Shown: piece by piece, positions 2,436-20,475 of the stretch | Layout of the letters: each line of letters begins with the position of its first letter | Position numbering within the stretch: the first letter of the stretch is position 1 | Source: a virus | Taxonomy: Duplodnaviria > Heunggongvirae > Uroviricota > Caudoviricetes | Length of the DNA: 20,795 nt | Virus record (IMG/VR): IMGVR_UViG_2529292920_000022 | Direction: 5' to 3' (one strand) | The notes under the pieces: model-generated | Seen by the model: only the letters and a program-made list of their open reading frames with translations | Told to the model about the DNA's origin: nothing | Databases searched by the model: none | Translations under genes and position numbers: made by a program

Positions 2436-2639
2436 ATGAACACCGACACTATTCCTACAAAAGGCTATATCAGACGCTTCCGCCTGGCTGAATTGCTGGG
2501 CGTTAGTGTATCCACCATCGACCGTAAAGTAAGAAACGGTTCACTACCACGTCCGGTAAAGCTGGGAGAAAAAATAACTGCGTTTGATGCGGTTGAGATT
2601 CACAACTGGCTGGCAGAACGCCGCGGGAAGGTGGCCTGA
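2436..2639 (+). CDS. alpA: AlpA-family transcriptional regulator / excisionase-like protein
   Basis: 67-aa ORF; the segment RRFRLAELLGVSVSTIDRKVRNGSLPRPVKLGEKITAFDAVEIHNWL matches the AlpA / MerR-like HTH pattern. Sits next to a P4-type integrase. The RBS region is flanked by an inverted repeat (CCCGTAAC ... GTTACGGG). Confidence 0.85.
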   Translation: MNTDTIPTKGYIRRFRLAELLGVSVSTIDRKVRNGSLPRPVKLGEKITAFDAVEIHNWLAERRGKVA

Positions 2640-2649
2640 TGGAAAAGAA

Positions 2650-3770
2650 AAACCGCCCATTACAGGCGGCTAATTCAGATATTCGCGTATCTGATGTTAC
2701 GCCCCTGACAAAATCCCTTCAAGCACCTGTATGGGTCCACCACATATTGCAATTTTTATTCTCTTTTAAAATATATTCCACGGGCGTCATTAGTGCGAGC
2801 GCCTTGTGGGGTCTTTTGCTGTTATACAGCACCAGATATTCCGCCAGCTTCTGGTTAAATAGCGCCAGATCTTCAAAGAGTAAAATCTCATTAAATTCAA
2901 TAAACTGCTCTCTTAACGTCCGGTTAAAACGTTCACAGATAGCGTTCATTTTTGGCGTGTAGGGATAGGTCCAGAGGTGTTTGATAGCGGCTTCCTGCAG
3001 CGTTTTGTCGAAGTTTCCCAGGAACTCTTTTCCGTTATCTGTGATTATCTGGCTGATACCGACCGGGAACAACCGGGCTGCGCGGCTGAAGAAGTGATTG
3101 ACGATATCACTGTTGAGTGACGGCACAGCCAGCGCCAGCGCGTAATTGCTGCATTCGTCGATCATGGTGATGACATAGCGACGCAGTTCGCCCATTCTGA
3201 GCTCAATGGCGTCCATCCCAATGAGCTCACCTGTCTTTACCGGGCGGTAGTGCTTTGGCCTGCGGGGTTTGGCAGACCGCTTTTTGACAAGCAGTGCCTT
3301 CCCCCGCGATCCCAGACGCACAGGTATCATCCGCATTTTATCATGTGCGGCAGCGATCATTCTGCCGATGGTGGAAACACTCGGACAGGCCAGATAGCGC
3401 TGTTCGCACCAGGGCTTCAGGCGAACAAAAATCTGCTCTTTACCGAGGTTCGGCAGCTCTGTCCTGAGGCGTCGAATCTCTTTCAGCACATCGGGATGCC
3501 AGTGTTTTTTTCGTCGCACCAGAGGTGCCTTACTGTGCGGGATTAGCCCCTCAGGTCCTTCCTTGTTCAGTAACTGACGCCACCAGTAAAGCGTGCGGCA
3601 GGACACGCCAAAGGCTTCAGAAGCTGCAGAAATACCGTGTTTATCCCAGAAGTGCAGAGCCTTCATTCTCATTGTTGCTATATCAGCCATCACTGAAAGC
3701 CTCAACGCATAATCGGCCGTTTGGTAGTACTTAGGATAGCCAACCATCAGATGCTGCATTTGCATAGTGC
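2650..3770 (-). mobile_element. IS481-family-like insertion sequence (single-ORF DDE transposase); boundaries approximate
   Basis: A single minus-strand ORF with an N-terminal HTH and an rve-type DDE core fills the gap between alpA and the next plus-strand gene. Imperfect inverted motifs near both ends (CATCAGAT-containing) are candidate terminal repeats. Exact ends and target-site duplication not resolved. Confidence 0.5.
2719..3765 (-). CDS. DDE transposase (rve / integrase core), IS481-family-like
   Basis: 348-aa ORF. N-terminal HTH (MADIATMRMKALHFWDKHGISAASEAFGVSCRTLYWWRQ) and candidate D, D, E residues (GMDAIEL, ITDNGKEF, NAICERFNRTL). The true start is probably the internal Met near 3690. 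Confidence 0.75.
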   Translation of the reverse strand: MQMQHLMVGYPKYYQTADYALRLSVMADIATMRMKALHFWDKHGISAASEAFGVSCRTLYWWRQLLNKEGPEGLIPHSKAPLVRRKKHWHPDVLKEIRRLRTELPNLGKEQIFVRLKPWCEQRYLACPSVSTIGRMIAAAHDKMRMIPVRLGSRGKALLVKKRSAKPRRPKHYRPVKTGELIGMDAIELRMGELRRYVITMIDECSNYALALAVPSLNSDIVNHFFSRAARLFPVGISQIITDNGKEFLGNFDKTLQEAAIKHLWTYPYTPKMNAICERFNRTLREQFIEFNEILLFEDLALFNQKLAEYLVLYNSKRPHKALALMTPVEYILKENKNCNMWWTHTGA

Positions 3771-3865
3771 AATCTCCCCTTACTTATCCGGAGGCAATTG
3801 CAATATCTCTGTGAACTTACACAGCACCAAAGCGCACACCGAAAAAGCATCGTGCCAGAGTCTAT

Positions 3866-4171
3866 ATGCTGCGTACTGGTATAGAGGGATGGACAGAAAA
3901 TGACATTCTTCGCTACTGCCGTCTGTCTTCTGGTCGTAACTATGCAACAGAGTTAGAACGCCAGCTTGGAATCACTCTGGAGCGTATCGACGAAAAGAAT
4001 CCTGATGGTATCGGAACACACCTTCGCTACCGTTTCTCCTGCCGTGGTGATGTTCTGAAAGTGATCACTCATGTTAACCATCTTGCGAACATAAATGATC
4101 ACAACGGACTTTCTCAGCAGGAAATTGCCGACATTCTGAAACTCTACCCGAACGCGTTTAACGCCGCCTAA
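3866..4171 (+). CDS. Hypothetical protein (101 aa); possibly a remnant of a gene disrupted by the IS
   Basis: Open frame immediately right of the IS with no convincing RBS at the annotated ATG. Confidence 0.35.
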   Translation: MLRTGIEGWTENDILRYCRLSSGRNYATELERQLGITLERIDEKNPDGIGTHLRYRFSCRGDVLKVITHVNHLANINDHNGLSQQEIADILKLYPNAFNAA

Positions 4172-4183
4172 CGGAGACTGAAA

Positions 4184-5017
4184 ATGAACATCGAAAAAAG
4201 CAGATTAATTTCTGAGGCCGCCCCTCATCTGAACGCCTCTCTGGGCACAATTAACGGTAATGAATTTGCCGCAATTGTCCCGGTTATTCCTGGTCATATC
4301 GGTGGGCGTGAAACCAATATTGTTAGCGCAAAAGCGTTACACAAAGCGTTGGGCGTGGGAAAAGACTTCTCTACATGGATCACTGATCGCATCTCTGAAT
4401 ATGACTTCACCATTGGGCACGATTACTCAGTCCATAAAACAATTTCCCCAAATTTGGGGAAAAGCCCGAATGGCGCGGCTTACAGCAAGATAAAGCACTC
4501 TGGCAGACCCGGCAAAGACTATCTGTTAAGTGTCGGAATGGCGAAAGAACTGGCAATGATCGAACGCAATGATCAGGGTCGCGCTATCCGCCGTTATTTC
4601 ATCCAGTGCGAGGAAGAATTACAGCGTACCGTGCCTGAAATCGCCGCCCGCTATCGTCGCCAGCTAAAAGCCCGTATTAGTGCCGCAAACAACTTTAAGC
4701 CAATGTGCGATGCGCTGAATATGGCCCGTGCCGAGATGGGGAAAATGACGCAGCAACACCACTACACAAACGAGAGCAATATGATTTCTCGTATCGTTCT
4801 TGGTGGGCTAACTGCTAAGCAGTGGGCGCGGATAAATGGCTATTCTGGCGAACCTCGCGACCATATGAACGCAGAACAGCTTGAGCACCTCTCATATCTC
4901 GAAAGCACCAATATCACGTTAATTGATATGGGCATGGAATATGAGCAGCGCAAAGGAGAACTCACCCGCCTGTCGCAACGCTGGCTCGCCAAGCGTCTGG
5001 AGGCGCTCAATGTCTAA
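4184..5017 (+). CDS. AntA/AntB-domain antirepressor-like protein
   Basis: 277-aa ORF. The segment KDYLLSVGMAKELAMIERNDQGRAIRRYFIQCEE and the preceding region match the AntA antirepressor domain pattern. Confidence 0.65.
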   Translation: MNIEKSRLISEAAPHLNASLGTINGNEFAAIVPVIPGHIGGRETNIVSAKALHKALGVGKDFSTWITDRISEYDFTIGHDYSVHKTISPNLGKSPNGAAYSKIKHSGRPGKDYLLSVGMAKELAMIERNDQGRAIRRYFIQCEEELQRTVPEIAARYRRQLKARISAANNFKPMCDALNMARAEMGKMTQQHHYTNESNMISRIVLGGLTAKQWARINGYSGEPRDHMNAEQLEHLSYLESTNITLIDMGMEYEQRKGELTRLSQRWLAKRLEALNV

Positions 5018-5189
5018 GCCAACAGGAACACCACAACCACAAAAACGCTACAAAGATGCCCACGGAGCACTCGTTACTGTCGAAAGCGTGTCTCACAACC
5101 GAGTGACGTTTTATCGCGACGGGTATCAATCGCCATGCGTACAACCGCTGGCGCGTTTCATGAAGGAGTTCGCGGAGGTTAACCAATGA
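5010..5189 (+). CDS. Small protein, DUF4222-like
   Basis: 59-aa ORF (MSKPTGTPQPQKRYKDAHGALVTVESVSHNRVTFYRDGYQSPCVQPLARFMKEFAEVNQ). GGAGG RBS 8 nt upstream; start overlaps the end of the upstream gene by 8 nt. Confidence 0.5.
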   Translation: MSKPTGTPQPQKRYKDAHGALVTVESVSHNRVTFYRDGYQSPCVQPLARFMKEFAEVNQ

Positions 5190-5619
5190 TACCCGTCCAG
5201 AAGAAGACATTTTCACTGGCTGGTATGTCGCCAAAATCCAGCAATATGACGGCAAAGTCAGGCATTAATACAGCAGATACAAGCAAAGTTTATCATTTGC
5301 TGGTGGTCGGAACGGATGCCTTAACCATACCAGAAATCTCGGGCGATGATATTAGCATTGAGAAGGTCAGCGGCTGCGCCAGAAAATTTCTGGTCGTAGA
5401 TGATGTCTTCCGCTCGCGTAGTGACTCCACAAAAACCTTCATCCGCGCGCGTGACGTTAACGAAATGAGCGCGATGTACTGTGCATCTGGTGCTTCCAAT
5501 AGCGAGTTTTCGGAGTCCATAAAAAAGAGCTTGCCGTTATGCGGCAACACGGTTTATGGTTATAAGGCACCTCATAAAACGGGTGCCGGGATTGGCGTCC
5601 TGGTAAATCGAATGGCGAC

Positions 5620-5847
5620 ATATGACGCGCCGAGCGTCTTTTTTTATGTCGTAGGTCTGACTCACCCATTTTTTGGGCGTTGGTGTATAATCCAGCGCCT
5701 TTGTCAATCAATGGTGGCTCAGGCAGGGGCTTCTTCGGAAGCGCCGGTATCCATTCGAGCCGGTTACGCCAACCCTGTCTGGGCTACCACCAGCGAAATT
5801 GGCGTTTCCGGTGGTAGCGTTACATGCTATCGAATGGAGGCTGCCAC
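5620..5847 (+). promoter_or_regulatory. Candidate terminator, promoter and structured leader upstream of the icd-like gene
   Basis: Short GC hairpin GACGC-GCCGA-GCGTC followed by a T7-8 run (about 5624-5645); extended -10 TGTATAAT (about 5684-5691); leader with a GCUUC-UUCG-GAAGC tetraloop hairpin and a 9-bp inverted repeat GCTACCACC / GGTGGTAGC; GGAGG RBS before the ATG at 5848. Confidence 0.3.
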
Positions 5848-6042
5848 ATGCTGGCTACTACCCCTACCCAAAAACCGCAATTTATCTGGATTATCGCCGC
5901 AGTTCGCCGCGATTGCCCGACAATTACCGCCAGAATTCATCATATTGCTGCCGAGTCTGAACGCGATGCTCGCCGTTCTCTGGTGCGCGATCACGTCTGC
6001 TTTTTTGCTGGTCGTATCCGCATGGAGGTGGCACATGATTAA
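5848..6042 (+). CDS. Icd-like (cell-division-inhibitor-like) small protein
   Basis: 64-aa ORF MLATTPTQKPQFIWIIAAVRRDCPTITARIHHIAAESERDARRSLVRDHVCFFAGRIRMEVAHD. The FxGR...V...H C-terminal pattern and size match Icd-like proteins of P1/P4-like elements. Good RBS. Confidence 0.55.
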   Translation: MLATTPTQKPQFIWIIAAVRRDCPTITARIHHIAAESERDARRSLVRDHVCFFAGRIRMEVAHD

Positions 6043-6253
6043 AACCTACGATGTGCATATGGATCCCCTCGAACGCACAAGCCAGATCATCACACTGACA
6101 GAAGTGATTAACGACATTCTGGTGAGCAACTCTCCCTCACGAGACGAAAGACTGAAGGCGTTACTCGCGATATTGGATCTCGCCGTTCGTGACGTTCATT
6201 TCCTGCTGGAAGGTGGCGAAATGCCAGTAAAAACGGGGGCAACCAATGAATAA
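6035..6253 (+). CDS. Hypothetical small protein (72 aa)
   Basis: ATG overlaps the icd-like stop (ATGATTAA); GGAGG RBS. It is the real 3' portion of the 355-aa ORF in the track, which I take to be a chimera. Confidence 0.5.
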   Translation: MIKTYDVHMDPLERTSQIITLTEVINDILVSNSPSRDERLKALLAILDLAVRDVHFLLEGGEMPVKTGATNE

Positions 6254-6440
6254 CTCAATTAATACCCCTCGCCTTACGTCCGCACTTCAATTAATCGAGC
6301 AAGCAGCGGCTGTCCTGGTTGCTGTCAGTCTTTCGGCTGAAGAAATGGACGCTACTGATGTCGTGGATGCGATTAAAGCGTGCTCATCTTTGGTTAACGA
6401 TGCCCGTGCAGAGCTGGTAATTCTTGGGGGTGAAAAATGA
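6246..6440 (+). CDS. Hypothetical small protein (64 aa)
   Basis: Start overlaps the upstream stop (ATGAATAA); part of a co-directional chain of coupled ORFs. Confidence 0.5.
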   Translation: MNNSINTPRLTSALQLIEQAAAVLVAVSLSAEEMDATDVVDAIKACSSLVNDARAELVILGGEK

Positions 6441-6700
6441 ATATCAACTTAATTTATCGTCATCCGTGTGAGCTGGAAATTGAATCATTGCTGAGCCGTG
6501 AAGAACCATATCCAGACACATTCACTCTTGCAGATCGCACGACTGAACGGCTTACCAGAGCGCGCACAGGTCTGGTTCATGTGATGAATGAGATTCTTCC
6601 ATCGGTGGGAGGGGAACAGGCGACAGTAATCACTAGCTGGCTACAAAAAGTTACCTCTCTGATAGATATCAGTTTAATCGATGCGGAGAGTGCGAAATGA
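6437..6700 (+). CDS. Hypothetical protein (87 aa)
   Basis: ATGA start/stop overlap with the upstream ORF. Confidence 0.5.
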   Translation: MNINLIYRHPCELEIESLLSREEPYPDTFTLADRTTERLTRARTGLVHVMNEILPSVGGEQATVITSWLQKVTSLIDISLIDAESAK

Positions 6701-6918
6701 CCAACATCCAGCTCATTGAAGCGCAATGTCGCATCGAACAGGTTCAGACTGTTTTAGGGTTCTGGCTTGAAGGGGCCAGCCCCAGCAACAGAGACAAGTT
6801 AATGATTGGCGCGGTTATGTCACTGCTCAATGGCGTACCAGAAGCTATTCAGGAAGCAGACGAATTGTTGGGCAAATATGAGTTACAGAATCATTCAGGC
6901 GAGGCGAAACATGAATAA
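6697..6918 (+). CDS. Hypothetical protein (73 aa)
   Basis: ATGA start/stop overlap with the upstream ORF. Confidence 0.5.
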   Translation: MTNIQLIEAQCRIEQVQTVLGFWLEGASPSNRDKLMIGAVMSLLNGVPEAIQEADELLGKYELQNHSGEAKHE

Positions 6919-7513
6919 TTTCTTAACTTTCCAGGCAGAAGCAACGCCTGACGGCGTAAACATCATGCACCGCAGCAACGATGGCATGACAGAACGCGTT
7001 GAGACCGTCTCATATATTGATGCCGTAAATCGTCTGGATGCCGAGGATTATGACGATAAACCAGATGAAGGTATGTCAATACATCTCGCTATTGCCGATG
7101 GCGGCAACCAGGGATATTTCGATTACACATCACAGCATAACGTCATTATGTGGAGATGGTTGATCGCAACAGTATTCATGCTGGAAATGAGAGAGGAAAA
7201 CGGCACTGTCAGCATCATTGATGATACTGGCAATCCTTCCGAAGTGGCTGTTTATTCCAACGGCATCGTCGCCATGCCGCTGTATCCAGTAGCAGAGCGC
7301 CTCGCTATGGCAAACAACATTGAGGGCGCGATGATAGAACGTTTTGGCATCGAGTCTGGCACAGAACGCTCCATCATTTTCTACAGAGCCATGATGGATG
7401 TGGAACAAGGAGCACTGACTCCATTTGGTCGTGAAACGCTTGCTGAACTTCACAACAGCTTTATAGCTGAACTGAATGAAAACGGCATGCCATCGGAACC
7501 AGTGACGCACTGA
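6911..7513 (+). CDS. Hypothetical protein (200 aa)
   Basis: Internal Met of track ORF 6806-7513; the start MNNFLTFQ overlaps the upstream stop (ATGAATAA). Confidence 0.5.
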   Translation: MNNFLTFQAEATPDGVNIMHRSNDGMTERVETVSYIDAVNRLDAEDYDDKPDEGMSIHLAIADGGNQGYFDYTSQHNVIMWRWLIATVFMLEMREENGTVSIIDDTGNPSEVAVYSNGIVAMPLYPVAERLAMANNIEGAMIERFGIESGTERSIIFYRAMMDVEQGALTPFGRETLAELHNSFIAELNENGMPSEPVTH

Positions 7514-7523
7514 GGATGGAACC

Positions 7524-7865
7524 ATGATTACTAAAAATTTCCGACTGAATGCGCTGGCAAATAAGTATGCGTCAGCACTGTATAACCACATTACCTCCAC
7601 CAGCGGCGGGGACTATTTCATGATTGATGCGGACGGAGAGGCCGTACGTGTGGAAATCGTCAATGGAGTAAAAGGCGTTCGCAGCCTGATCGATAGTTAC
7701 GCACTGGCAGCCATGAAAGTGTTCTACCCGCAGTGGGAAACCGTGGGGATCGAGCTTCTTGATCGTTGCGTCACTAAGGACAGATTGACTGACGTCGGGC
7801 GTGAGATATGGCAAAGCATGGTTAATGACATGGGCGCAACTGTAGCGGGAGGTTCTCATGCGTGA
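7524..7865 (+). CDS. Hypothetical protein (113 aa)
   Basis: Co-directional ORF in the pre-primase operon, with a short intergenic gap carrying an RBS-like GGAGGATGG. Confidence 0.5.
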   Translation: MITKNFRLNALANKYASALYNHITSTSGGDYFMIDADGEAVRVEIVNGVKGVRSLIDSYALAAMKVFYPQWETVGIELLDRCVTKDRLTDVGREIWQSMVNDMGATVAGGSHA

Positions 7866-8229
7866 AAATGCAGAAATGGCGCTTAGCTCCGCAATCGGAG
7901 AGCAGGTGGCAAAGATTGCTGGTGCTGTGTGGATTCATAACCTTCATTCTACTGGTGAAGAGAAAATGGCAATTCAGACGCCAGAGGGACGCACTATTAC
8001 TACATCTCTGAAGCCGTCAGATGTTTGTGATCTGATTTGCGCATTCATGTACCCAGCAATGAGGACTGTCCACGGCGATAAGTGGAAACTTGCGACAACC
8101 GCTGAATTTGATATGTGGCTAAACAATGATGGCATGCTGACTGATTACGGAATAACCAAGTGGCAGATGCTGGTTAGCCATATCGCAAACGCTATAGACC
8201 ACGTGGGGTACGGTGATGCGAAACATTGA
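7858..8229 (+). CDS. Hypothetical protein (123 aa)
   Basis: Start overlaps the upstream ORF end; its stop overlaps the primase start. Confidence 0.5.
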   Translation: MRENAEMALSSAIGEQVAKIAGAVWIHNLHSTGEEKMAIQTPEGRTITTSLKPSDVCDLICAFMYPAMRTVHGDKWKLATTAEFDMWLNNDGMLTDYGITKWQMLVSHIANAIDHVGYGDAKH

Positions 8230-10972
8230 TCTTATCCGTCAGGTTATCAGTGCGTCTGAAAACAACTGGCCTCATGTGCTGGGCTGCCTGAACATAAATG
8301 TCCCTGACTCTCCGCGCCGTCATGCTCCCTGCCCTGCATGTGGGGGCAAAGATCGATTCCGGTTCGATGACAACGGGCGCGGTAGCTTCATCTGTAATCA
8401 GTGCGGCGCTGGTGATGGGCTGGATTTAATTAAACGCGTAAATAACTGCGACACAACAGAGGCGGCGCTGCTTGCCGCTGATGTTCTGGGTATTGATTAC
8501 CGGACAACGGAAACACCAGAAGCCACCAGCCAGAAACGGGAACAACTGGAAACCGAGCGCCAGCAACGCGAACAGGAGCGCCTGAAAAGGGCGGAGAAGG
8601 ACGAACAACAAAGACGGGATACGTTTTCCCGTCAGTTTGATGACATGCGCAGAAAGGCTGTAAACGGCAAATCTGATTATCTGGTTGCGAAAGGGGTAGG
8701 TGATTTTACATTCCCCGTGTTGCCCGATGGATCTCTGTTGCTGGCGCTGGTGGATAAATCCGGCGCAGTCACAGCAGCACAGACTATTACCTCACATGGT
8801 GAAAAAAGACTCCTGACAGGTTCAGCAAAGCGGGGGGCATATCACGCCATAAACGCACCAGAAACAACACAGAGCATCTTAATCGCAGAAGGGCTGGCAA
8901 CGGCATTATCTGCCCATTTAATTCGTCCAGAGGCGCTGACAGTGGCGGCGATTGATGCCGGGAACCTGTTATATGTCGCCCAGGTACTGCGGGATAAATT
9001 TCCTTCAGCACAAATCATCATTGCTGCGGATAACGACCACAGCGAAGGAAGACAAAACACGGGGAGAATAGCAGCAGAAAAAGCAGCTTTATCTGTTTCT
9101 GGATGGGTGGCATTACCCCCGACAGGTCACAAAGCAGACTGGAATGATTACCACCAAAAACACGGCATTAAATGCGCCACAGAAGCGTTCAATAAGTCAA
9201 TGTACCAACCACAGGGTAATGGCGTGAAACAGGAGCCACAGACCATTGAGGGAAGCGATTTTAAGGTTATGGATACCGACCCACTGAAACCAAGAATAGA
9301 AAGCCGCGAGGATGGTATTTATTGGGTATCTCCGAGAGCTGACAGCCAGAGTGGAGAAATCATCAATAACGAAAGCTGGTTATGTTCTCCGTTAAGCGTT
9401 ATCGGTACTGGCAGAGACGATAAAGACCAGTATCTCATTCTTCGCTGGCTGTCGTTTGGTTCTGAAACGCCGACAACCGCTGCCATTCCACTGGCTGATA
9501 TTGGTGAACGTGAAGGATGGCGCACACTTAAAGCTGGTGGGGTAAATGTCACGACCAAAAGCAGCCTCAGAGCAATACTGGCAGACTGGCTACAACGCAG
9601 TGGCTCTCGTGAATTGTGGCGTGTTGCTCATGCCACTGGCTGGCAATGCGGAGCGTACATCATGCCTGATGGGGAAATCATCGGAACACCTGAAAATCCT
9701 GTGCTGTTCAGCGGGAGAAGCTCAGCCGCAGCCGGATATACCGTCTCAGGGAGCGCGCAAAGCTGGCGTGATAACGTGGCGCGTCTGGCCTTTGGTAACT
9801 ATTCAATGATGACCGGGATCGGCGCAGCACTGGCAGCACCATTGATTGGGCTGGTGGGCGCTGACGGGTTCGGCATTCATTTCTATGAGCAGTCGAGCGC
9901 AGGTAAGACCACCACGGCAAACGTGGCGAGCAGCTTATACGGCAACCCTGATTTACTGCGGCTGACGTGGTACGGAACCGCGCTGGGGCTGGCAAATGAG
10001 GCCGCCGCCCACAATGACGGACTAATGCCGCTTGATGAAGTTGGTCAGGGCGCTGATCCTGTCAGCGTTTCACAGTCTGCCTATGCGTTATTTAACGGTG
10101 TAGGGAAACTGCAAGGCGCTAAAGATGGTGGAAACCGGGATCTAAAACGCTGGCGTACAGTGGCAATCAGCACCGGAGAAATGGATTTAGAAACATTTAT
10201 CGCTACTTCCGGGCGAAAAACCAAAGCCGGGCAACTGGTGCGACTGCTGAATATTCCGTTGAGTAAAGCAGTACGCTTTCACGATTACCAGAACGGAAAA
10301 CAGCACGCAGACGCACTGAAAGACGCTTACCAGCATCACCATGGCGCAGCCGGGCGTGAGTGGATTAAATGGCTGGCAGACCACCAGCAACAGGCTATTA
10401 AAACTGTTCGTGATTGCGAAAGCAGATGGAGAAGCCTGATCCCACCCGATTATGGTGAGCAGGTTCACCGTGTAGCCGCGCGATTTGCCATTCTGGAGGC
10501 CGCATTGTTGTTAGGCGAGGTTGTAACAGGCTGGGATGCTCAGACATGCCGTGATGCGATACAGCACAGCTATAACGCATGGTTGCGCGAGTTCGGCACA
10601 GGTAACAAAGAGCATCAGCAGATTATTGAACAAACGGAGGCATTTCTTAATGCCTATGGGCTTAGCCGTTTTGCACCATTTCCATACAGCCCGGCAGATT
10701 TGCCCATCAAAGATTTAGCCGGATACCGTCAGCGTGGAGAACATGACGAAAGCCCAATGATTTTCTACACATTCCCGGCCACATTTGAAAAGGAGATCGC
10801 ATGTGGTTTCAACGCAAAACAGTTTGCTGAAGTGTTGAAAAAAGCCGGGATGCTAACCCCACCAAACAGCGGTCGTGGATACCAAAGAAAATCACCACGT
10901 ATTCAGGGACGACAAATAAACGTTTATGTACTCAATTACCAGCCAGGAGATTATAACTCATCTGAAGAATGA
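8213..10972 (+). CDS. Primase-helicase (P4 alpha-like: zinc-binding primase region, TOPRIM, C-terminal helicase domain)
   Basis: 919-aa ORF. N-terminal Cys cluster (CPACGGKDRF...CNQCG); TOPRIM-like acidic motifs (IAEGLATALS..., IIIAADNDHSEGRQNTG); Walker A-like GIHFYEQSSAGKTT and Walker B-like LMPLDEVG. The ATG at 8216 is the likely start (8213 is GTG). Confidence 0.9.
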   Translation: MMRNIDLIRQVISASENNWPHVLGCLNINVPDSPRRHAPCPACGGKDRFRFDDNGRGSFICNQCGAGDGLDLIKRVNNCDTTEAALLAADVLGIDYRTTETPEATSQKREQLETERQQREQERLKRAEKDEQQRRDTFSRQFDDMRRKAVNGKSDYLVAKGVGDFTFPVLPDGSLLLALVDKSGAVTAAQTITSHGEKRLLTGSAKRGAYHAINAPETTQSILIAEGLATALSAHLIRPEALTVAAIDAGNLLYVAQVLRDKFPSAQIIIAADNDHSEGRQNTGRIAAEKAALSVSGWVALPPTGHKADWNDYHQKHGIKCATEAFNKSMYQPQGNGVKQEPQTIEGSDFKVMDTDPLKPRIESREDGIYWVSPRADSQSGEIINNESWLCSPLSVIGTGRDDKDQYLILRWLSFGSETPTTAAIPLADIGEREGWRTLKAGGVNVTTKSSLRAILADWLQRSGSRELWRVAHATGWQCGAYIMPDGEIIGTPENPVLFSGRSSAAAGYTVSGSAQSWRDNVARLAFGNYSMMTGIGAALAAPLIGLVGADGFGIHFYEQSSAGKTTTANVASSLYGNPDLLRLTWYGTALGLANEAAAHNDGLMPLDEVGQGADPVSVSQSAYALFNGVGKLQGAKDGGNRDLKRWRTVAISTGEMDLETFIATSGRKTKAGQLVRLLNIPLSKAVRFHDYQNGKQHADALKDAYQHHHGAAGREWIKWLADHQQQAIKTVRDCESRWRSLIPPDYGEQVHRVAARFAILEAALLLGEVVTGWDAQTCRDAIQHSYNAWLREFGTGNKEHQQIIEQTEAFLNAYGLSRFAPFPYSPADLPIKDLAGYRQRGEHDESPMIFYTFPATFEKEIACGFNAKQFAEVLKKAGMLTPPNSGRGYQRKSPRIQGRQINVYVLNYQPGDYNSSEE

Positions 10973-10997
10973 GCTTCTTCATGTGCGTAGAAAAGGT

Positions 10998-11108
10998 GTT
11001 GGTTCAGTTGGTTCAGTTGGTTCAATTTGTAAAGAGTATTGTTTTATAAGGATTTTATTCTTTTTATTGAACCAACACTGAACCAACAACACGGTATTTT
11101 GAACCAAC
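10998..11108. repeat. Iteron array, putative replication origin (left copy of an inverted pair)
   Basis: Three tandem GTTGGTTCA 9-mers (about 10998-11024), a 44-bp AT-rich spacer, then three TGAACCAAC 9-mers (the reverse complement) at about 11069, 11079 and 11100. Lies immediately 3' of the primase gene. Confidence 0.6.
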
Positions 11109-11428
11109 ACAATGTGACTGAATTGATGCGCACAACACCTGGCTGGCATCAGAGAGTGTTTTACGAGACTTTCGTAAAATCCTGTGTACAAGGGCGTGAC
11201 GTTTTTGAAAGTGAGCACTACGAAATTTTCGTAGTTCAAAAAACAGCCTCTGAGAAGTTGTTATGCCTGTTCAGCAAACCATCCGCATAGCTGATCGCGA
11301 ATCAAATTACCAATGGAGCCAGAAGCAAGGGCAGAACTGAAAAGCGCCTGCCGTGAAGAGTAATGCGATACCATAAATATAGTTTTTAGAGTCCATAAAA
11401 AACCTGTCAAAACCTGACACACAGAACG

Positions 11429-11462
11429 ATGCCACCAGCTACTGAGCGGTGGCATTTTTTTG
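11429..11462 (+). terminator. Rho-independent terminator
   Basis: 8-bp stem ATGCCACC / GGTGGCAT with an 11-nt loop, followed by 8 or more T. Confidence 0.6.
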
Positions 11463-11556
11463 TGCTATTTGTTTCATATTTTGCAATTACGATGATGAAT
11501 ATTGCGATTTGTGAAACCATAATAACTGTTGTTTTATACAGTTCTAAGGGGGCGTT

Positions 11557-11718
11557 ATGGCTATTTCAGTAAAGCCGGTATTGATAAGTGAGAAGCAAAT
11601 GGAAGCGATAAAGAAAATTCAGGAAGAGCAGCGTAAAAAATCAGGAATTGGAGTAGCGCCAACTCTGCATGAAATTGCACGAGGGTTAATAGATAAGGCG
11701 CTGGCAGGCTGTATGTGA
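11557..11718 (+). CDS. Small hypothetical protein (53 aa), possible regulator
   Basis: ORF MAISVKPVLISEKQMEAIKKIQEEQRKKSGIGVAPTLHEIARGLIDKALAGCM with AAGGGGG RBS. Below the ORF-track length cutoff. First gene after the terminator and promoter-like AT-rich region. Confidence 0.4.
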   Translation: MAISVKPVLISEKQMEAIKKIQEEQRKKSGIGVAPTLHEIARGLIDKALAGCM

Positions 11719-11734
11719 AAATGGATGGCATCGC

Positions 11735-12196
11735 ATGGAACTAAAATTTATTGATAACCCTGTGCGATTACAGGCCTTTCTTAACGAGCCAGGCAATACC
11801 GAAAATATTGTTGAGCCGGGGCACACGTACTACATCAAGCCTGATGCGGTATATCTCGGCATCTACGAAGGATTAGTGCTGGCTGGCGTTCATGAAGTGC
11901 GTAACTTCTGGCATAGCGTTGTTGAATGCCATGCGGTGTACGACCCCGGATTCCGTGGTGAATATGCACTGCAAGGGCATCGATTATTCTGCAAATGGCT
12001 TCTCGAAAACTCACCATTCCTTAACAGCATCACCATGGTTCCTGACACCACCAAATACGGACGGGCAATTATCCGTTTGCTTGGCGCTACCCGTGTTGGT
12101 CACCTTGATGATGCTTATATCAGATGTGGTAAACCCGTCGGCGTAACGCTTTATCAGTTAACTCGGCAACAATATAAGGAATTCAGCGAATGTTAA
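11735..12196 (+). CDS. Phage virion-assembly-associated protein, P22 gp14-like by position (tentative)
   Basis: 153-aa ORF translationally coupled (ATGTTAA overlap) to the following three genes. Assigned by position in a gp14-gp7-gp20-gp16-like array; the sequence itself is not diagnostic to me. Confidence 0.4.
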   Translation: MELKFIDNPVRLQAFLNEPGNTENIVEPGHTYYIKPDAVYLGIYEGLVLAGVHEVRNFWHSVVECHAVYDPGFRGEYALQGHRLFCKWLLENSPFLNSITMVPDTTKYGRAIIRLLGATRVGHLDDAYIRCGKPVGVTLYQLTRQQYKEFSEC

Positions 12197-12867
12197 TTAC
12201 CCATATAGCTCATAAACATCTCAATCGTGCCGTATACGAAAAAGGCGGTGATGGTGGTGCCTCTAAAGCTCAGGCGAAGGCCCAGCAGCAGGCAATTGAT
12301 TTGCAGCGCGAGCAGTGGAATACGGTGATGAATAATCTCAAGCCGTATGCAGAAGTCGGATTGCCTGCTTTACAACAACTGCAAGGACTGATGACTCTGG
12401 AAGGGCAGAATAAAGCCGCGAATGATTTCTTTGGTTCTGGTTTATATAAAACACAGGCAGATCAGGCCCGTTATCAGAACCTTGTCTCAGCAGAAGCTAC
12501 CGGGGGGCTTGGCTCAACAGCTACCAGTAACCAGTTATCTTCCATTGCGCCCATGCTTTATAACAATTGGCTCAGTGGGCAAATGCAAAATTATGGAAAC
12601 CTGCTAAATGTCGGGATGAATGCGGCATCAGGGCAGGCAACGGCAGGGCAAAACTACGCCAATAATACCGGACAACTCTTGCAGGGGCTTGGCGCTATTC
12701 GTGCAGGTCAGGCGCAGCAGCCATCCAGTCTTGCGCGTGGTATTGGTGGGGCAGCATCAGGCGCTTTAGCGGGTGCGCAACTTGGTTCCGTTGTTCCTGG
12801 AATAGGAACTGCGGCCGGCGCTATTGGTGGTGGGCTTATTGGTCTTGTTGGGGGGCTTGGATTCTAA
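12190..12867 (+). CDS. Ejection (internal virion) protein, P22 gp7-like
   Basis: 225 aa (P22 gp7 is about 229 aa as I recall). Gln/Ala/Gly-rich with a Gly-rich hydrophobic C-terminus (GIGTAAGAIGGGLIGLVGGLGF). TAATG coupling to the next gene. Confidence 0.55.
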   Translation: MLITHIAHKHLNRAVYEKGGDGGASKAQAKAQQQAIDLQREQWNTVMNNLKPYAEVGLPALQQLQGLMTLEGQNKAANDFFGSGLYKTQADQARYQNLVSAEATGGLGSTATSNQLSSIAPMLYNNWLSGQMQNYGNLLNVGMNAASGQATAGQNYANNTGQLLQGLGAIRAGQAQQPSSLARGIGGAASGALAGAQLGSVVPGIGTAAGAIGGGLIGLVGGLGF

Positions 12868-14288
12868 TGGCGACATGGCAACTTGGCGGGCTGCCTAGCA
12901 TGGCACCGCAAAATGATAATGCTCCTCGTTCTTCCGTTCCTCAGCCTGTGCAGTATCAGCAGCAGCCAAACGTAGGTTTAATGGCGCTACAGGGGCTAAG
13001 AGGCGTTGCTGAGATTAATCAGCAGGCACGTCAACAACAGCGTAAATCAGAGTTTCAGAAAGCATATGCCGGGGCTTTTGAGTCTGGAGACAGAAACAAA
13101 ATGCGCAGTCTTATTTCTGAGTATCCAGAAGAATTTGAAAGCGTTCAGAAAGGGATGGGCTTTATTGATGACGACCAGAGAAATTCTATTGGTCATCTTG
13201 CGACTAGTGCTCAAATCGCATCTTCGCTCGGAACTGGGGCATTTGGAAAATTCATAGCAGATAACGAAGATGAAATGCGTCGCTTGGGAATTTCTCCTGA
13301 GTCTGTTGCCGAAATGCATGTTAATGATCCACAGGGATTCCAGCGGCTTGCTGGTAGTATGGCACTGTTTTCTCTCGGTCATGAGAAGTATTTCGATATC
13401 AAAGATCAAATGGAAGGTCGGGATATTGAGCGAGGCAGGCTGGCAGAGACAATCCGCAGCAATCAGGCTGGCGAAGCACTTCAGGCGAGAGGGCAGGATA
13501 TTAGCCGAGCAAATGCGTTAACGTCAGCATATGCACCAACAGCAGCAATGCAGAATTACAATCAGTACGCTCAAATGTTAAAGGCGGATCCAGAGGGGGC
13601 GGCGGCATTTGCGGCAGCGGCTGGAATTAATACAAACGCCAAAAAATTAATGAGTGTTAGAGAAAACGATGATGGCACTGTCACAAAATACTACACAGAC
13701 GGAAGTGAAGAGCAGGGAAAACTAAACCAGCCAATATCTGGAGATGGGTTTCGTCCAATAGCTTTGCCAACAGCCCAAAAGATCATGGAAAAGTCGCCAG
13801 AAGGGGCTAAAAAAGCTGCTGGATTTGCATACAGGGTTAGGGATGCTCTTGATTCAATAGATACACTGAAAGACCAGCTTAGCCCACAGCGAGTGGCGAT
13901 CATTAATAATGCTTTGGGTAATGGGACGCTGGCTAACTTAACGCTCAGCCCAACAGAGCAGCAATACGTTGTTAATGCTAATGACGCAATAATGGCAATA
14001 CTCCGTCAGGAAACAGGGGCAGCTATCGTACCTGCTGAAATGTCAAAATATTATCAAATGTATTTCCCTCAGCCTGGCGACTCCACAAAAACCATTGATA
14101 CCAAGCGCCGGAAGATGGAAAACCAGTTCAATTCGCTGAAAGCTGCTTCTGGTCGAGCTTATGATGCTTTGCGGGTTATTTCAGCAGTTGACAGAGGAAC
14201 GTCTTCTTCGTCGCAGACATTGCCGCAATCTGAGCAGGTATCACAGCCAGCAGCCAGCAGTAACTTTTCTTCACTATGGGGTGATTAA
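12867..14288 (+). CDS. Ejection protein, P22 gp20-like
   Basis: 473 aa (P22 gp20 is about 471 aa as I recall). Low-complexity Q/A-rich N-terminus. TAATG coupling on both sides. Confidence 0.55.
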   Translation: MATWQLGGLPSMAPQNDNAPRSSVPQPVQYQQQPNVGLMALQGLRGVAEINQQARQQQRKSEFQKAYAGAFESGDRNKMRSLISEYPEEFESVQKGMGFIDDDQRNSIGHLATSAQIASSLGTGAFGKFIADNEDEMRRLGISPESVAEMHVNDPQGFQRLAGSMALFSLGHEKYFDIKDQMEGRDIERGRLAETIRSNQAGEALQARGQDISRANALTSAYAPTAAMQNYNQYAQMLKADPEGAAAFAAAAGINTNAKKLMSVRENDDGTVTKYYTDGSEEQGKLNQPISGDGFRPIALPTAQKIMEKSPEGAKKAAGFAYRVRDALDSIDTLKDQLSPQRVAIINNALGNGTLANLTLSPTEQQYVVNANDAIMAILRQETGAAIVPAEMSKYYQMYFPQPGDSTKTIDTKRRKMENQFNSLKAASGRAYDALRVISAVDRGTSSSSQTLPQSEQVSQPAASSNFSSLWGD

Positions 14289-16393
14289 TGGCTAAAGCAT
14301 GGAAAGATGTTATCGCCTCTCCACAGTATCAGGCGTTAGCACCAGAACAAAAAGCGCAGGCTCAGGAGCAATACTTCAATGAAGTCGTTGCCCCGCAAGC
14401 CGGAGAAAGTGTAGAGCAGGCTAAGCAGGCTTTTTATGCTGCCTATCCACTACCATCAACGAATGAAATAGACCGATCCCAATCAGCAACTCAAAATATT
14501 CAACATACATCATCTGATAATTCTCTTGCGTCAGGGTATGCAAAGTTAGCTACTCAGCAAAGAGAGGGGCTTGAGCGTTCAGCAGAACAGGGAGCCAGTC
14601 TTGGGGCTGCGATGCGCGATGCTATAACAGGCGAAAGCCGAATGACTTCAGAGATGGAGAGACTGCAAAATGTCGCCTCTGCCCCAGAATTGAACTCACT
14701 AAGCATGGATGCCCTAAAGGCTGGATGGTCCCAACTTTTCGGCTCTGACGCGTCTCAGGAAAAGATTCTTCAGGGAATGGGGGCGACATTAAGGCAGGAT
14801 GAGAAGGGGAATACTATCGTTTCTCTGCCATCAGGTGATTATGCCCTGAACAAGCCGGGTTTATCACCGCAAGACCTGACTTCGTTTCTTGCTAATGCGT
14901 TGGCGTTTACACCAGCGGGCAGGGCTGGAACGGTGCTTGGTGCCATAGGAAAATCAGCAGCTACAGATTTAGCACTACAGGGAGCCACCAGCCTTGCTGG
15001 TGGAGAAGATATTGATCCGTTACAAACGGTAATTTCTGCTGGTATTGGTGGTATTGGTAAGGGGCTGGAAAATACAGCGAGTGCGGTTTCGAGGGCTGTT
15101 CGTGGTGATATGTCGCCTGAAGCAAAGGCTGCTGTCGACTTTGCATCGGAAAGAAATCTGCCGTTAATGACCAGTGACATGCTGAAAGATAAAACCTTTA
15201 TGCAGAGTCAGGCTCAGACATTAGGCGAAAGAGTTCCTTTTTTTGGAACCGGTAAGAATCGGCTGAATCAACAACAAGCACGAGAAAATTTAGTCAGAAC
15301 ATTTAGCGATGGTCTGGGTGGCATTTCTGATAAACAGCTTTATGAATCTGCGACTAAAGGGCAACAAAAATTCATTGAGGCAGCAGGAAAGCGATATAAC
15401 CGCATAATTGACGCTATGGGGGATACCCCTGTCGATCTCTCAAACACGGTAAAAGCTATCGACAATCAGATTGCCGTGTTAAGCCGCCCGGGCAAATCTC
15501 AGGATAGAGCCGCGGTAAAAGTCTTGCAGCAATTTAAAGACGATATCACCAGCGGACCAAATGACCTGCGCCTGGCGAGGGAAAACAGAACCGATCTTCG
15601 AAAGCGATTTATTGCGTCATCTGACACTGTTGATAAAGATACGCTCCAGAAAGCCAGCGATATTATCTACAAGGCATATACGGCGGATATGAAAAAAGCC
15701 GTAGCCAAAAATCTTGGAGCAGACGAAGCCATTAATATGGCAAGGGTTGATCGCTCATGGTCTAAATTCAATGACATGATGGGAAGAACGCGCGTTCAAA
15801 AGGCAATAGCCAGCGGCAAGGCCACGCCTGAGGATGTAACAAAACTCGTTTTTAGCCAAAGCCCATCAGAACGTTCTCAGCTTTACAGGCTTCTGGATGA
15901 CAATGGTAGGCAAAACGCACGAGCAGCCATAGTTCAGAATGCTGTAGATAAGGCGACTGATCCGTCTGGAAATATCAGTGTTGAGAAGTTTATTAATGCG
16001 TTACACCGGAACAGGAAGCAATCAGCAACTTTCTTTAAAGGCGTACATGGGAAGGAACTGGACGGCGTTATTAAATACCTCAACGATACAAGACACGCGG
16101 CAAAAGCGAACGTTCAAAACTTAAATGGTCAGCAGCTTTATGGATTGTTAGTTGGTGGTGGCATCATAAACGCAGCAGTATTAGCGGGGATGCTAAAAAC
16201 GGCTGCGTTTGTTGTTCCTGCTGCTGGTGCCGTAGGCGGAGCAGCGAAGGCATACGAAACCCCTGTTATACGAAATGCCTTGTTACGTCTGGCAAATACG
16301 CCAAAAGGTAGCACAGCATATGACAGAGCGATCAGTACGGTCACACAATCGCTCACCAGAGTCGCACAGGCATCACAAAAAGAAGCTCAATAA
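14288..16393 (+). CDS. Ejection protein, P22 gp16-like
   Basis: 701 aa. Ala/Gln/Gly-rich with a C-terminal hydrophobic Gly/Ala segment (LLVGGGIINAAVLAGMLKTAAFVVPAAGAVGGAA). Last gene of the four-gene coupled operon. Confidence 0.55.
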   Translation: MAKAWKDVIASPQYQALAPEQKAQAQEQYFNEVVAPQAGESVEQAKQAFYAAYPLPSTNEIDRSQSATQNIQHTSSDNSLASGYAKLATQQREGLERSAEQGASLGAAMRDAITGESRMTSEMERLQNVASAPELNSLSMDALKAGWSQLFGSDASQEKILQGMGATLRQDEKGNTIVSLPSGDYALNKPGLSPQDLTSFLANALAFTPAGRAGTVLGAIGKSAATDLALQGATSLAGGEDIDPLQTVISAGIGGIGKGLENTASAVSRAVRGDMSPEAKAAVDFASERNLPLMTSDMLKDKTFMQSQAQTLGERVPFFGTGKNRLNQQQARENLVRTFSDGLGGISDKQLYESATKGQQKFIEAAGKRYNRIIDAMGDTPVDLSNTVKAIDNQIAVLSRPGKSQDRAAVKVLQQFKDDITSGPNDLRLARENRTDLRKRFIASSDTVDKDTLQKASDIIYKAYTADMKKAVAKNLGADEAINMARVDRSWSKFNDMMGRTRVQKAIASGKATPEDVTKLVFSQSPSERSQLYRLLDDNGRQNARAAIVQNAVDKATDPSGNISVEKFINALHRNRKQSATFFKGVHGKELDGVIKYLNDTRHAAKANVQNLNGQQLYGLLVGGGIINAAVLAGMLKTAAFVVPAAGAVGGAAKAYETPVIRNALLRLANTPKGSTAYDRAISTVTQSLTRVAQASQKEAQ

Positions 16394-20187: not shown

Positions 20188-20475
20188 ATGATAAAGGACA
20201 GGAAAGCTGAAGAGCTGGAGTCAAAAGGGCTATACCGGAGAGCTGCCGCACGATGGGCAGAAGTCATGATGCTGGCAGATGGCGATAAAGAACGTGAACA
20301 TGCAGCAAACAGACGCTCTGAATGTATCCGTAAGGCGGCACGCCCACCAGCAACTACAGACAGATTCGGAGATTTAAGACAGGCAGTTAAGCGGACTCAT
20401 TCGGCTCTTGGTATGGATGAGGAAGCGAGAGGGTACTTCAGGCGTTATCGCGATAAAGATTGCCAGAGACAGTAA
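20188..20475 (+). CDS. PerC-family transcriptional regulator-like protein
   Basis: 95-aa ORF; the N-terminus MIKDRKAEELESKGLYRRAAARWAEVM matches the PerC/Pch family pattern. TATAAT-like -10 and a GAGAGG RBS lie just upstream, directly next to the iterons. Confidence 0.65.
   Translation: MIKDRKAEELESKGLYRRAAARWAEVMMLADGDKEREHAANRRSECIRKAARPPATTDRFGDLRQAVKRTHSALGMDEEARGYFRRYRDKDCQRQ

Follow-up and report, generated by a model that had tools for sequence, protein, structure and literature searches.

A tightly coupled chain of seven small genes between a C4-type antisense RNA locus and the primase gene of an EcCIMP1-like island in Escherichia coli

The DNA analyzed here (referred to as the window; 20,795 nucleotides [nt], IMG/VR virus record IMGVR_UViG_2529292920_000022, Caudoviricetes) carries a series of small open reading frames (ORFs) at 6035–8229, between an icd-like gene and a primase gene. 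This locus raises the question of whether the small ORFs form a genuine operon, how such an operon would be controlled, and what its products may do. We consider it fairly likely that this stretch serves as the early (replication) operon of a phage-inducible chromosomal island (PICI) of the EcCIMP1 type, that its layout resembles those of the left operon in satellite phage P4 and of the immI operon in phage P1, and that it consists of a coupled chain of genes under the control of a C4 RNA. The chain comprises seven ORFs, designated A to G, which lie end to end on the plus strand and are framed by the icd-like ORF and the primase gene. Lengths are given in amino acids (aa); pI is the predicted isoelectric point and RBS the ribosome-binding site.

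5848–6042, plus strand: icd-like leader ORF, 64 aa from the ATG at 5848; a 72-aa version starts from the ATG at 5824
6035–6253, plus strand: ORF A, 72 aa, pI 4.8; RBS GGAGGT; 8-nt overlap with the icd stop
6246–6440, plus strand: ORF B, 64 aa, pI 4.2; 8-nt overlap with A
6437–6700, plus strand: ORF C, 87 aa, pI 4.9; ATGA overlap with B
6697–6918, plus strand: ORF D, 73 aa, pI 4.7; ATGA overlap with C
6911–7513, plus strand: ORF E, 200 aa; 8-nt overlap with D
7524–7865, plus strand: ORF F, 113 aa; starts 10 nt past the E stop
7858–8229, plus strand: ORF G, 123 aa; overlaps F by 8 nt and the primase start by 14 nt
8216–10972, plus strand: primase-helicase, last gene of the chain, with zinc ribbon, Toprim, and DUF927 domains (Pfam PF08273, PF13362, PF06048)

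An earlier reading made from the sequence only had counted six small ORFs and had stated that every start overlaps the preceding stop. The count has to be raised to seven; the lower number probably arose because the Prokaryotic Genome Annotation Pipeline (PGAP) usually either skips ORF A or makes it part of a 355-aa "ash family protein". The statement about overlaps holds for five of the six junctions among A to G, which overlap by 4 or 8 nt, and also for the icd/A and G/primase junctions; it fails for E/F, where a 10-nt gap (TGAggatggaaccATG) contains the ribosome-binding site GAGGA. The overlap sequences in the window are more varied than the ATGA and one further motif that had been named. 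They are ATGATTAA at icd/A, ATGAATAA at both A/B and D/E, ATGCGTGA at F/G (8 nt each), and ATGA (4 nt) at both B/C and C/D. The overlap between G and the primase gene is 14 nt if the latter starts at the ATG at 8216, and 17 nt if it starts at the GTG at 8213. From the icd stop to the primase, each ORF start either overlaps the preceding stop or is located at most 10 nt from it. When junctions with 4- or 8-nt overlaps between ORFs of at least 60 aa were counted in the region 5801–8300, six were found on the plus strand and none on the minus strand, and 500 shuffles of this region yielded a mean of 0.01 and a maximum of 1. The overlap pattern is far from chance. Neither promoter-like nor terminator-like sites were found on the plus strand between 5640 and 9860.

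The gene order was compared across nine loci from Escherichia, Kosakonia, Enterobacter, and Cedecea. Of the 51 junctions between icd and the primase gene in these loci, 42 are overlaps. Eight of the nine others are 9–12-nt gaps after E (the stop codon of which is within TGAGGGGG), and the ninth is associated with a deletion hybrid. The content of the interval is modular, with two to seven ORFs among which A, B, and G are rare, and the C-terminal domain of the primase that follows this cassette also varies (DUF927, DUF5906, or P4-family). The claim of a real operon feeding into the primase is thus borne out by a co-oriented and tightly coupled chain, by the junctions in the nine loci, by the shuffles, and by the lack of an internal promoter- or terminator-like site. 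Two of the compared loci have peculiarities. In locus L004 (NZ_LR898868.1, 5201–5407), the hybrid is an in-frame deletion product which joins the N-terminus of a 59-aa ORF known from locus L003 to the C-terminal half of C; after it comes a 54-nt gap, the sole long gap in any chain. In Cedecea davisae (locus L008, 2780–4970), a seven-ORF coupled chain with two tandem copies of D precedes the primase gene, and the match to icd is weak; the control element of this locus may be different.

The main regulatory feature of the region, which had been omitted from the sequence-only reading, is located just upstream of the chain. It is a C4/CI-type antisense RNA aimed at the RBS of icd, and it is accompanied by a target element of the isrK type:

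5567–5644, plus strand: isrK/seqA-like (a1b1-type) target element (Rfam RF01394, 67.1 bits)
5592–5598, plus strand: box a of the isrK-like element, TTGGCGT, complementary to the C4 RNA
5608–5615, plus strand: box b of the isrK-like element, TCGAATGG, in the isrK linker; complement of the C4 loop
5624–5638 plus T-run, plus strand: terminator-like hairpin and U-run of the isrK-like element
5707–5794, plus strand: C4/CI-type antisense RNA (Rfam RF01695, 79.5 bits with a threshold of 45, full length)
5748–5759, plus strand: loop of C4 hairpin 2 (12 nt), TATCCATTCGAG, anti-box b
5764–5773, plus strand: 3′ single strand of C4, TTACGCCAAC, anti-box a
5799–5840, plus strand: target sites in the 5′ untranslated region (5′UTR) of icd, with box a TTGGCGT at 5799–5805 and box b TCGAATGGA at 5830–5838

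The assignment of icd itself is based on NCBIfam NF033153 (phage_ICD_like, E = 4.6e-20) and on phrog_1743. Its box b overlaps the RBS GGAGG (5836–5840), which ends 7 nt 5′ of the icd ATG, and the C4 loop segment TCCATTCGA is an exact 9-nt complement of this box. Such complementarity between the loop and the cognate RBS box extends over 8–10 nt in all nine loci, which have eight different loop sequences, while non-cognate pairs reach at most 6 nt; a shuffled C4 loop reaches 8 nt with P = 0.005. The second antisense segment of C4 (5764–5773) is complementary to the TTGGCGT of both the isrK loop and the icd 5′UTR and co-varies with it through six variants. Among close relatives, variation in the locus peaks in the C4 region, where 37 of 88 sites differ, whereas icd to E are conserved, which is the pattern expected for immunity specificity. 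As far as can be judged from these sequences, this suggests that there are many immunity types among EcCIMP1-like islands, with at least eight co-varying specificities (5645–5847 and the corresponding regions of loci L002–L010 and L028). The isrK and C4 models of Rfam match in 10 of 11 related loci, Cedecea being the exception, and also in P4; locus L004 additionally matches RF03163 (c4-a1b1).

According to the annotation of an identical locus, the window is a chromosomal island of E. coli located between yicC and dinD. The sequence of NZ_CP183129.1 agrees with it at 100% identity, and the region is matched in 569 of 5426 complete E. coli genomes. The general layout with int, alpA, and a primase gene in about 20 kb, devoid of capsid and lysis genes, is that of a Gram-negative PICI of the EcCIMP1 type. 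EcCIMP1 is the PICI of E. coli strain MP1 (Pick, Stadel & Raivio 2025, PMC11773190), and positions 3823–13027 of the window show 97.5% sequence identity to it over 9.2 kb. At the protein level, the identity is 97% for A, 97% for B, 100% for C, 100% for D, 97% for E, 97% for F, 99% for G, and 99% for the primase. The two islands thus have essentially the same operon, and they also share alpA, antA/B, DUF4222, "ash", icd, the DUF927 primase, genes for P22-like ejection proteins, and PerC. They differ in the integrase and in the insertion site, which is yicC–dinD in the present island and tRNA-Thr near proA in strain MP1. Excision, circularization, and transduction of EcCIMP1 were found only with the P22-like helper phage Kapi1; ORFs A to G and the C4 and isrK RNAs are not discussed in that report (PMC11773190). 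The EcCIMP1 copies of A to G are annotated as uncharacterized hypothetical proteins. Helper dependence has been demonstrated for EcCIMP1 with Kapi1 and may also apply to the present island.

The arrangement has close counterparts in P4 and P1. In P4, the order is isrK, C4 (the CI RNA), an ORF with an icd-like C-terminus, epsilon, ORF151, ORF106 (DUF5375; presumably cnr), and the alpha primase gene. The succession of RNA elements, icd-like ORF, small ORFs, and primase is thus the same as in the window, and the starts of epsilon and ORF151, which follow the icd-like ORF, also overlap by 8 nt each. There are differences, however. P4 has three small ORFs where the present island has seven; sid, delta, and psu are missing from the latter, which has P22-type ejection genes; and the C-terminal domain of its primase is DUF927 rather than of the P4 alpha type. 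The products of the P4 genes have assigned roles, epsilon inactivating the helper repressor and cnr controlling the copy number (PMC8628076). None of A to G has a Pfam match to P4 epsilon (PF25738) or an hhalign comparison with it below P = 0.05, and no similarity to P4 ORF151 was detectable. That the C4 and isrK models detect relatives of CI and seqA in Gram-negative PICIs has been described (Tommasini et al., PMC10111431).

The immI operons of P1 and P7 share with the window a C4-family RNA, upstream targets of the a1/b1 type, a target box on the icd RBS, and a following start which overlaps the end of icd; in addition, the RNA–target specificity differs between elements in both cases. An operon of the immI/P4 type is also indicated by the combination of C4 RNA, isrK-like target element, co-varying RBS complement, and stop/start overlap at icd. 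In work on P1 (Citron & Schuster 1990, Biere et al. 1992, Riedel et al. 1993), c4 is reported to occlude the icd RBS, and when icd is not translated, Rho-dependent termination reportedly occurs before ant. The cargo is different: it is the ant1/ant2 antirepressor in P1 and P7, whereas it consists of seven proteins of unknown function and a primase in the present island, the antA/B-type antirepressor gene of which is located upstream of the RNAs. Expression of ant requires icd in P1 (PMC8201110).

All of this presupposes that the small ORFs are genes. The alternative is that they are non-coding spacer with chance open frames, which would be compatible with the lack of family annotation for A to G and with the lack of diverged relatives of A and B. 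The sequence-only reading had named frameshifts in relatives as a sign of non-coding sequence, and the relatives of C to G were found to be intact at 35–93% amino acid identity in several genera. Such intact relatives of C, D, E, and F (43–93%) come from Kosakonia, Enterobacter, and Cedecea islands as well as from further islands of E. coli. Relatives of C (59%) directly follow icd in the Kosakonia and Enterobacter islands, and those of D (43–48%) are found in Enterobacter and Cedecea. E has 534 homologues and F has 137 homologues across the Enterobacterales, while G belongs to a rare family with five full-length relatives among 1.84 billion representatives (35–66% identity). For A and B, the homology search retrieved near-identical copies only and no diverged relatives. 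A joint search with A, B, C, and D returned almost exclusively "ash" ORFs containing A, and a scan of genome contigs with E alone gave five loci. Copies of A with at least 95.9% nucleotide identity were found in 488 of 5426 E. coli genomes, and gene calls of the 72-aa protein exist on more than 800 contigs.

Allelic variation was analyzed in 21 loci. A has 11 alleles, all of which are intact, as are all alleles of B. The numbers of variable sites in codon positions 1/2/3 are 2/4/9 for A (P = 0.03), 2/2/6 for B, 1/0/7 for D, 4/0/11 for F, and 6/9/20 for icd; a third-position bias together with a complete lack of disrupted alleles was seen for A, B, C, E, F, and G. With, in addition, a fold predicted at high confidence for F and a junction pattern that is not seen in shuffles or on the opposite strand, the non-coding alternative is already contradicted, and we regard its probability as negligible. 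By these sequence criteria, A to G are protein-coding.

A special case is ORF A. PGAP annotates B to G as hypothetical proteins, and the frame to which A belongs is open from 5186 to 6253, so that in many genomes a 355-aa protein is annotated there, of which A might merely be the C-terminus. We consider this very improbable. The Pfam match on which the name "ash family protein" is based (Phage_ASH, PF10554; aa 124–212, corresponding to nt 5555–5821) coincides with the isrK and C4 RNA genes and has the terminator-like hairpin inside. In the region overlapping icd, the variable sites given above fall preferentially on icd third positions, which are second positions of the ash frame. The long ORF is broken in EcCIMP1 and in loci L025 and L026, with A remaining intact in all three and being annotated on its own in L026 (WP_021548277.1); in L003, it is the icd frame to which the upstream ORF is joined. 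Finally, A has its own GGAGGT site and an ATG that overlaps the icd stop. Sequence comparison thus identifies A as a gene independent of the long "ash" ORF, and the 355-aa protein seems to result from reading on through two RNA genes, the icd region (in a different frame), and ORF A. In P4 (locus L032, 8168–8584), the PF10554 match also overlies the isrK and C4 RNA genes. PF10554 has been used as a marker for P4 epsilon (PMC8628076); the P4 epsilon ORF itself, however, matches PF25738.

All seven proteins are acidic (pI 4.2–5.6), and E has a net charge of −22. The earlier statement that none of them matches a recognized family could be upheld: none of A to G has a match in Pfam (E ≤ 0.1) or in NCBIfam, and PADLOC defense-system models gave only chance-level matches (E ≥ 0.005). 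PHROG profiles, all of unknown function, were matched by D (phrog_20558, 2.9e-9), E (phrog_1515, 7.7e-46), and F (phrog_37628, 3.1e-50), and by none of A, B, C, and G. The AlphaFold2 model of F (pLDDT 92, pTM 0.84) consists of a helix, a beta-hairpin, and three helices, and that of E (pLDDT 71) of an N-terminal beta/alpha part followed by the same order of elements as in F. Profile–profile comparison of F and G with hhalign gave a probability of 94% (E = 1.4e-7, 91 columns). The similarity extends over the full-length profiles and includes shared invariant residues (W-E/K, LTxxG, and W), so that, by sequence, F and G are tandem paralogues. This domain probably recurs in the C-terminal half of E, which compares to F/G with P = 0.001–0.008 overall, and for E 100–186 against F 31–105 the value is P = 0.001, with LTxxGRE as a common motif. 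No relative of F was found among solved structures in the PDB, a Foldseek search with F against predicted viral structures (BFVD) gave nothing at E ≤ 0.001, and sequence-profile searches of the PDB with E, F, and G returned nothing significant.

A corresponding grouping of A, B, C, D, and similar small ORFs into one helix–loop–helix family was considered and rejected, the hhalign P values being non-significant after 36 comparisons. The best values were 8e-4 for B against an 81-aa ORF from Cedecea, 0.004 for B against D, and 0.025 for A against D. A 94-aa protein (P0267) is a natural fusion of F 1–68 and G 97–123 which resulted from a deletion across the F/G junction. As this is a simple deletion and not a recombination at homologous positions, it provides no evidence for the paralogy of F and G.

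Relatives of E (30–35% identity) and of F (54–64%) are encoded in phi467, phiP27, Stx1 and Stx2 phages, and prophages of Klebsiella and Yersinia. There they are part of the early-left operon between the repressor gene and xis/int, in long chains of small packed ORFs. In contrast to the present operon, these early-left operons have no C4/icd in front and no primase gene behind. Homologues of A, B, C, or G did not turn up in the phage collection (A, B, and G were not searched individually), and C and D had no tblastn match. One of the records with relatives of both proteins is OM284015.1, "Elizabethkingia phage EKP1", which at about 23069–24734 has enterobacterial-type homologues of E (34% identity) and F (64%; 68% at the DNA level). 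The assignment of this record to a Bacteroidota host, or its purity, looks doubtful.

From this arrangement, a mode of control can be proposed. In the resident state, the C4-like RNA would block ribosome loading on icd, by analogy with P1 immI and P4 immunity. The downstream ORFs would be read mainly by ribosomes handed on from the preceding ORF, and mRNA left untranslated would be exposed to Rho-dependent termination. A single block at icd could then spread through the chain, switching off A to G and the primase and, with it, replication. Transcription induced by the helper, probably through AlpA as in EcCIMP1, would outrun the RNA, and upon induction the eight products (A to G and the primase) should appear together and in fixed proportions. 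We consider it probable that the operon is under antisense-RNA control.

Several points weigh against this proposal. That expression of A to G and the primase hinges on translation of icd is an extrapolation from P1. Every ORF has its own purine-rich RBS-like motif, 5–12 nt upstream, which would permit independent initiation. Predicted mRNA folding does not consistently bury the downstream starts, the mean unpaired probability of which ranges from 0.20 to 0.69 with no pattern. The P4 CI RNA is described as acting mainly by premature termination of transcription, a mechanism that would need no translational coupling. In Cedecea (L008), the coupled chain is retained even though Rfam finds neither C4 nor isrK. 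The main rival explanation builds on several of these points: the overlaps would reflect compact, phage-style packing of genes which initiate from their own RBS, and the C4-like RNA would act purely via transcription termination, as in P4. Beyond the RBS-like motifs and the lack of consistent predicted pairing at the starts, this is consistent with similar overlaps elsewhere in the island (8 nt for ant/DUF4222, 4 nt for DUF4222 and the ORF starting at 5186) and with the terminator-like hairpin of the isrK-like element. However, box b is on the icd RBS in every locus and co-varies with the loop, which is the position expected for translational repression as in P1 immI, and the rule that no long gaps occur begins exactly at the icd stop and persists despite the shuffling of genes between islands. 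On balance, we consider mere packing unlikely, and antisense control of a coupled chain remains the preferred explanation.

With respect to function, some or all of A to G, especially E, F, and G, could be replication accessory or copy-number factors which act on the primase-helicase and are analogues of P4 Cnr. G overlaps the primase start by 14 nt, and P4 ORF106 (DUF5375) is found in the same position upstream of alpha, where cnr controls the copy number (PMC8628076). E shows a weak similarity to ORF106 (hhalign P = 0.04, 53 columns), and 3 of 120 relatives from the E family have a precomputed PF17345 tag. A scan of viral contigs with Cnr returned near-identical copies only and thus gave no diverse profile. 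Against such a role, hmmscan finds no DUF5375 (PF17345) in E or in 46 relatives at E values up to 10; the E/F relatives of phi467, phiP27, and the Yersinia prophage are in early-left operons with no adjoining primase gene; a G-like gene in another yicC-site island has a P22 gp7-like gene as its neighbor and is remote from the primase; there are islands that share the primase N-terminus but have no F or G; and the helicase domain that follows the cassette can equally be DUF927, DUF5906, or P4-family. We therefore regard a Cnr-like function as quite unlikely. The phage context of E and F and the context of the G-like gene argue against a dedicated primase cofactor as well as against a role in capsid sizing, and they favor general early accessory functions.

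Our tentative suggestion is that A to G are accessory early effectors which bind helper or host proteins (as anti-repressor, anti-defense, or takeover factors) and are not dedicated to replication or capsid sizing; we would not go beyond calling this possible. It is drawn from the context, the charge, and the absence of matches, and, as a point on the other side, nothing indicates a specific target. An anti-repressor or host-directed role is plausible by analogy, as P4 has epsilon and cnr in the same slot and all seven proteins are acidic. Capsid redirection, which had also been brought up in the sequence-only reading, is unlikely because relatives of E and F are present in early-left operons of ordinary temperate phages. 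A more specific version, which we consider somewhat less probable, is that E, F, and G represent a previously undescribed fold family common to phage early-left operons and EcCIMP1-type satellites and act as helper- or host-directed effectors, with A to D being a diversifying group of small acidic helical binders whose roles would be similar. Such an effector could set off or modulate the P22-like helper as an anti-repressor, or it could inhibit a host protein involved in defense or repair.

The architecture of the operon (P4 left operon, P1 immI) and the kind of element (EcCIMP1) are known. New details are the domain shared by F and G (and probably E), ORF A as an unannotated gene, and the large number of co-varying specificities of C4. 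EcCIMP1-type islands are present in roughly a tenth of the complete E. coli genomes and affect helper-phage biology and virulence regulation. The genes in the interval between immunity RNA and primase would encode the first products upon waking of the satellite; in P4, these include the helper derepression protein and a copy-number regulator. An antisense RNA of the P1/P4 type with many co-varying specificities provides a testable model of how satellites remain silent and avoid cross-talk, and seven conserved acidic proteins, three of them with a common fold (probable in the case of E), are a short list of candidates for factors that interfere with helper or host. There is also an annotation problem, since "ash family protein" calls (PF10554) are for the most part translations of RNA genes, behind which a genuine small ORF is concealed.

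A few observations concern other parts of the island. An int-alpA RNA motif (RF02996, 60.6 bits) is located at 1269–1335, directly 3′ of the integrase gene, and is also found in loci L006 and L009. The part upstream of the RNAs (2436–5189) is compact as well, which applies to alpA and the ORF at 2639 and to the overlapping genes antA/B, DUF4222, and the 5186 ORF; this run of genes ends in the isrK-like terminator hairpin (5624–5644). We take the order antirepressor, DUF4222, isrK to resemble the orf45-anrP-isrK locus of Gifsy-1. Many database copies of C carry the spurious propagated name "nicotinic acetylcholine receptor subunit beta".

P22-type DNA-ejection genes are found at 11735–16393 and code for a DUF2824 protein, a 225-aa ORF, a 473-aa "phage DNA ejection protein", and a 701-aa ORF. 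Their presence is consistent with a P22-like helper. It is unusual for a satellite to bring its own ejection proteins, and the EcCIMP1 report offers no explanation (PMC11773190). A gene for a PerC-family regulator is located at the far end of the island (20188–20475); the PerC homologue of EcCIMP1 lowers LEE1 expression in Citrobacter rodentium (PMC11773190).

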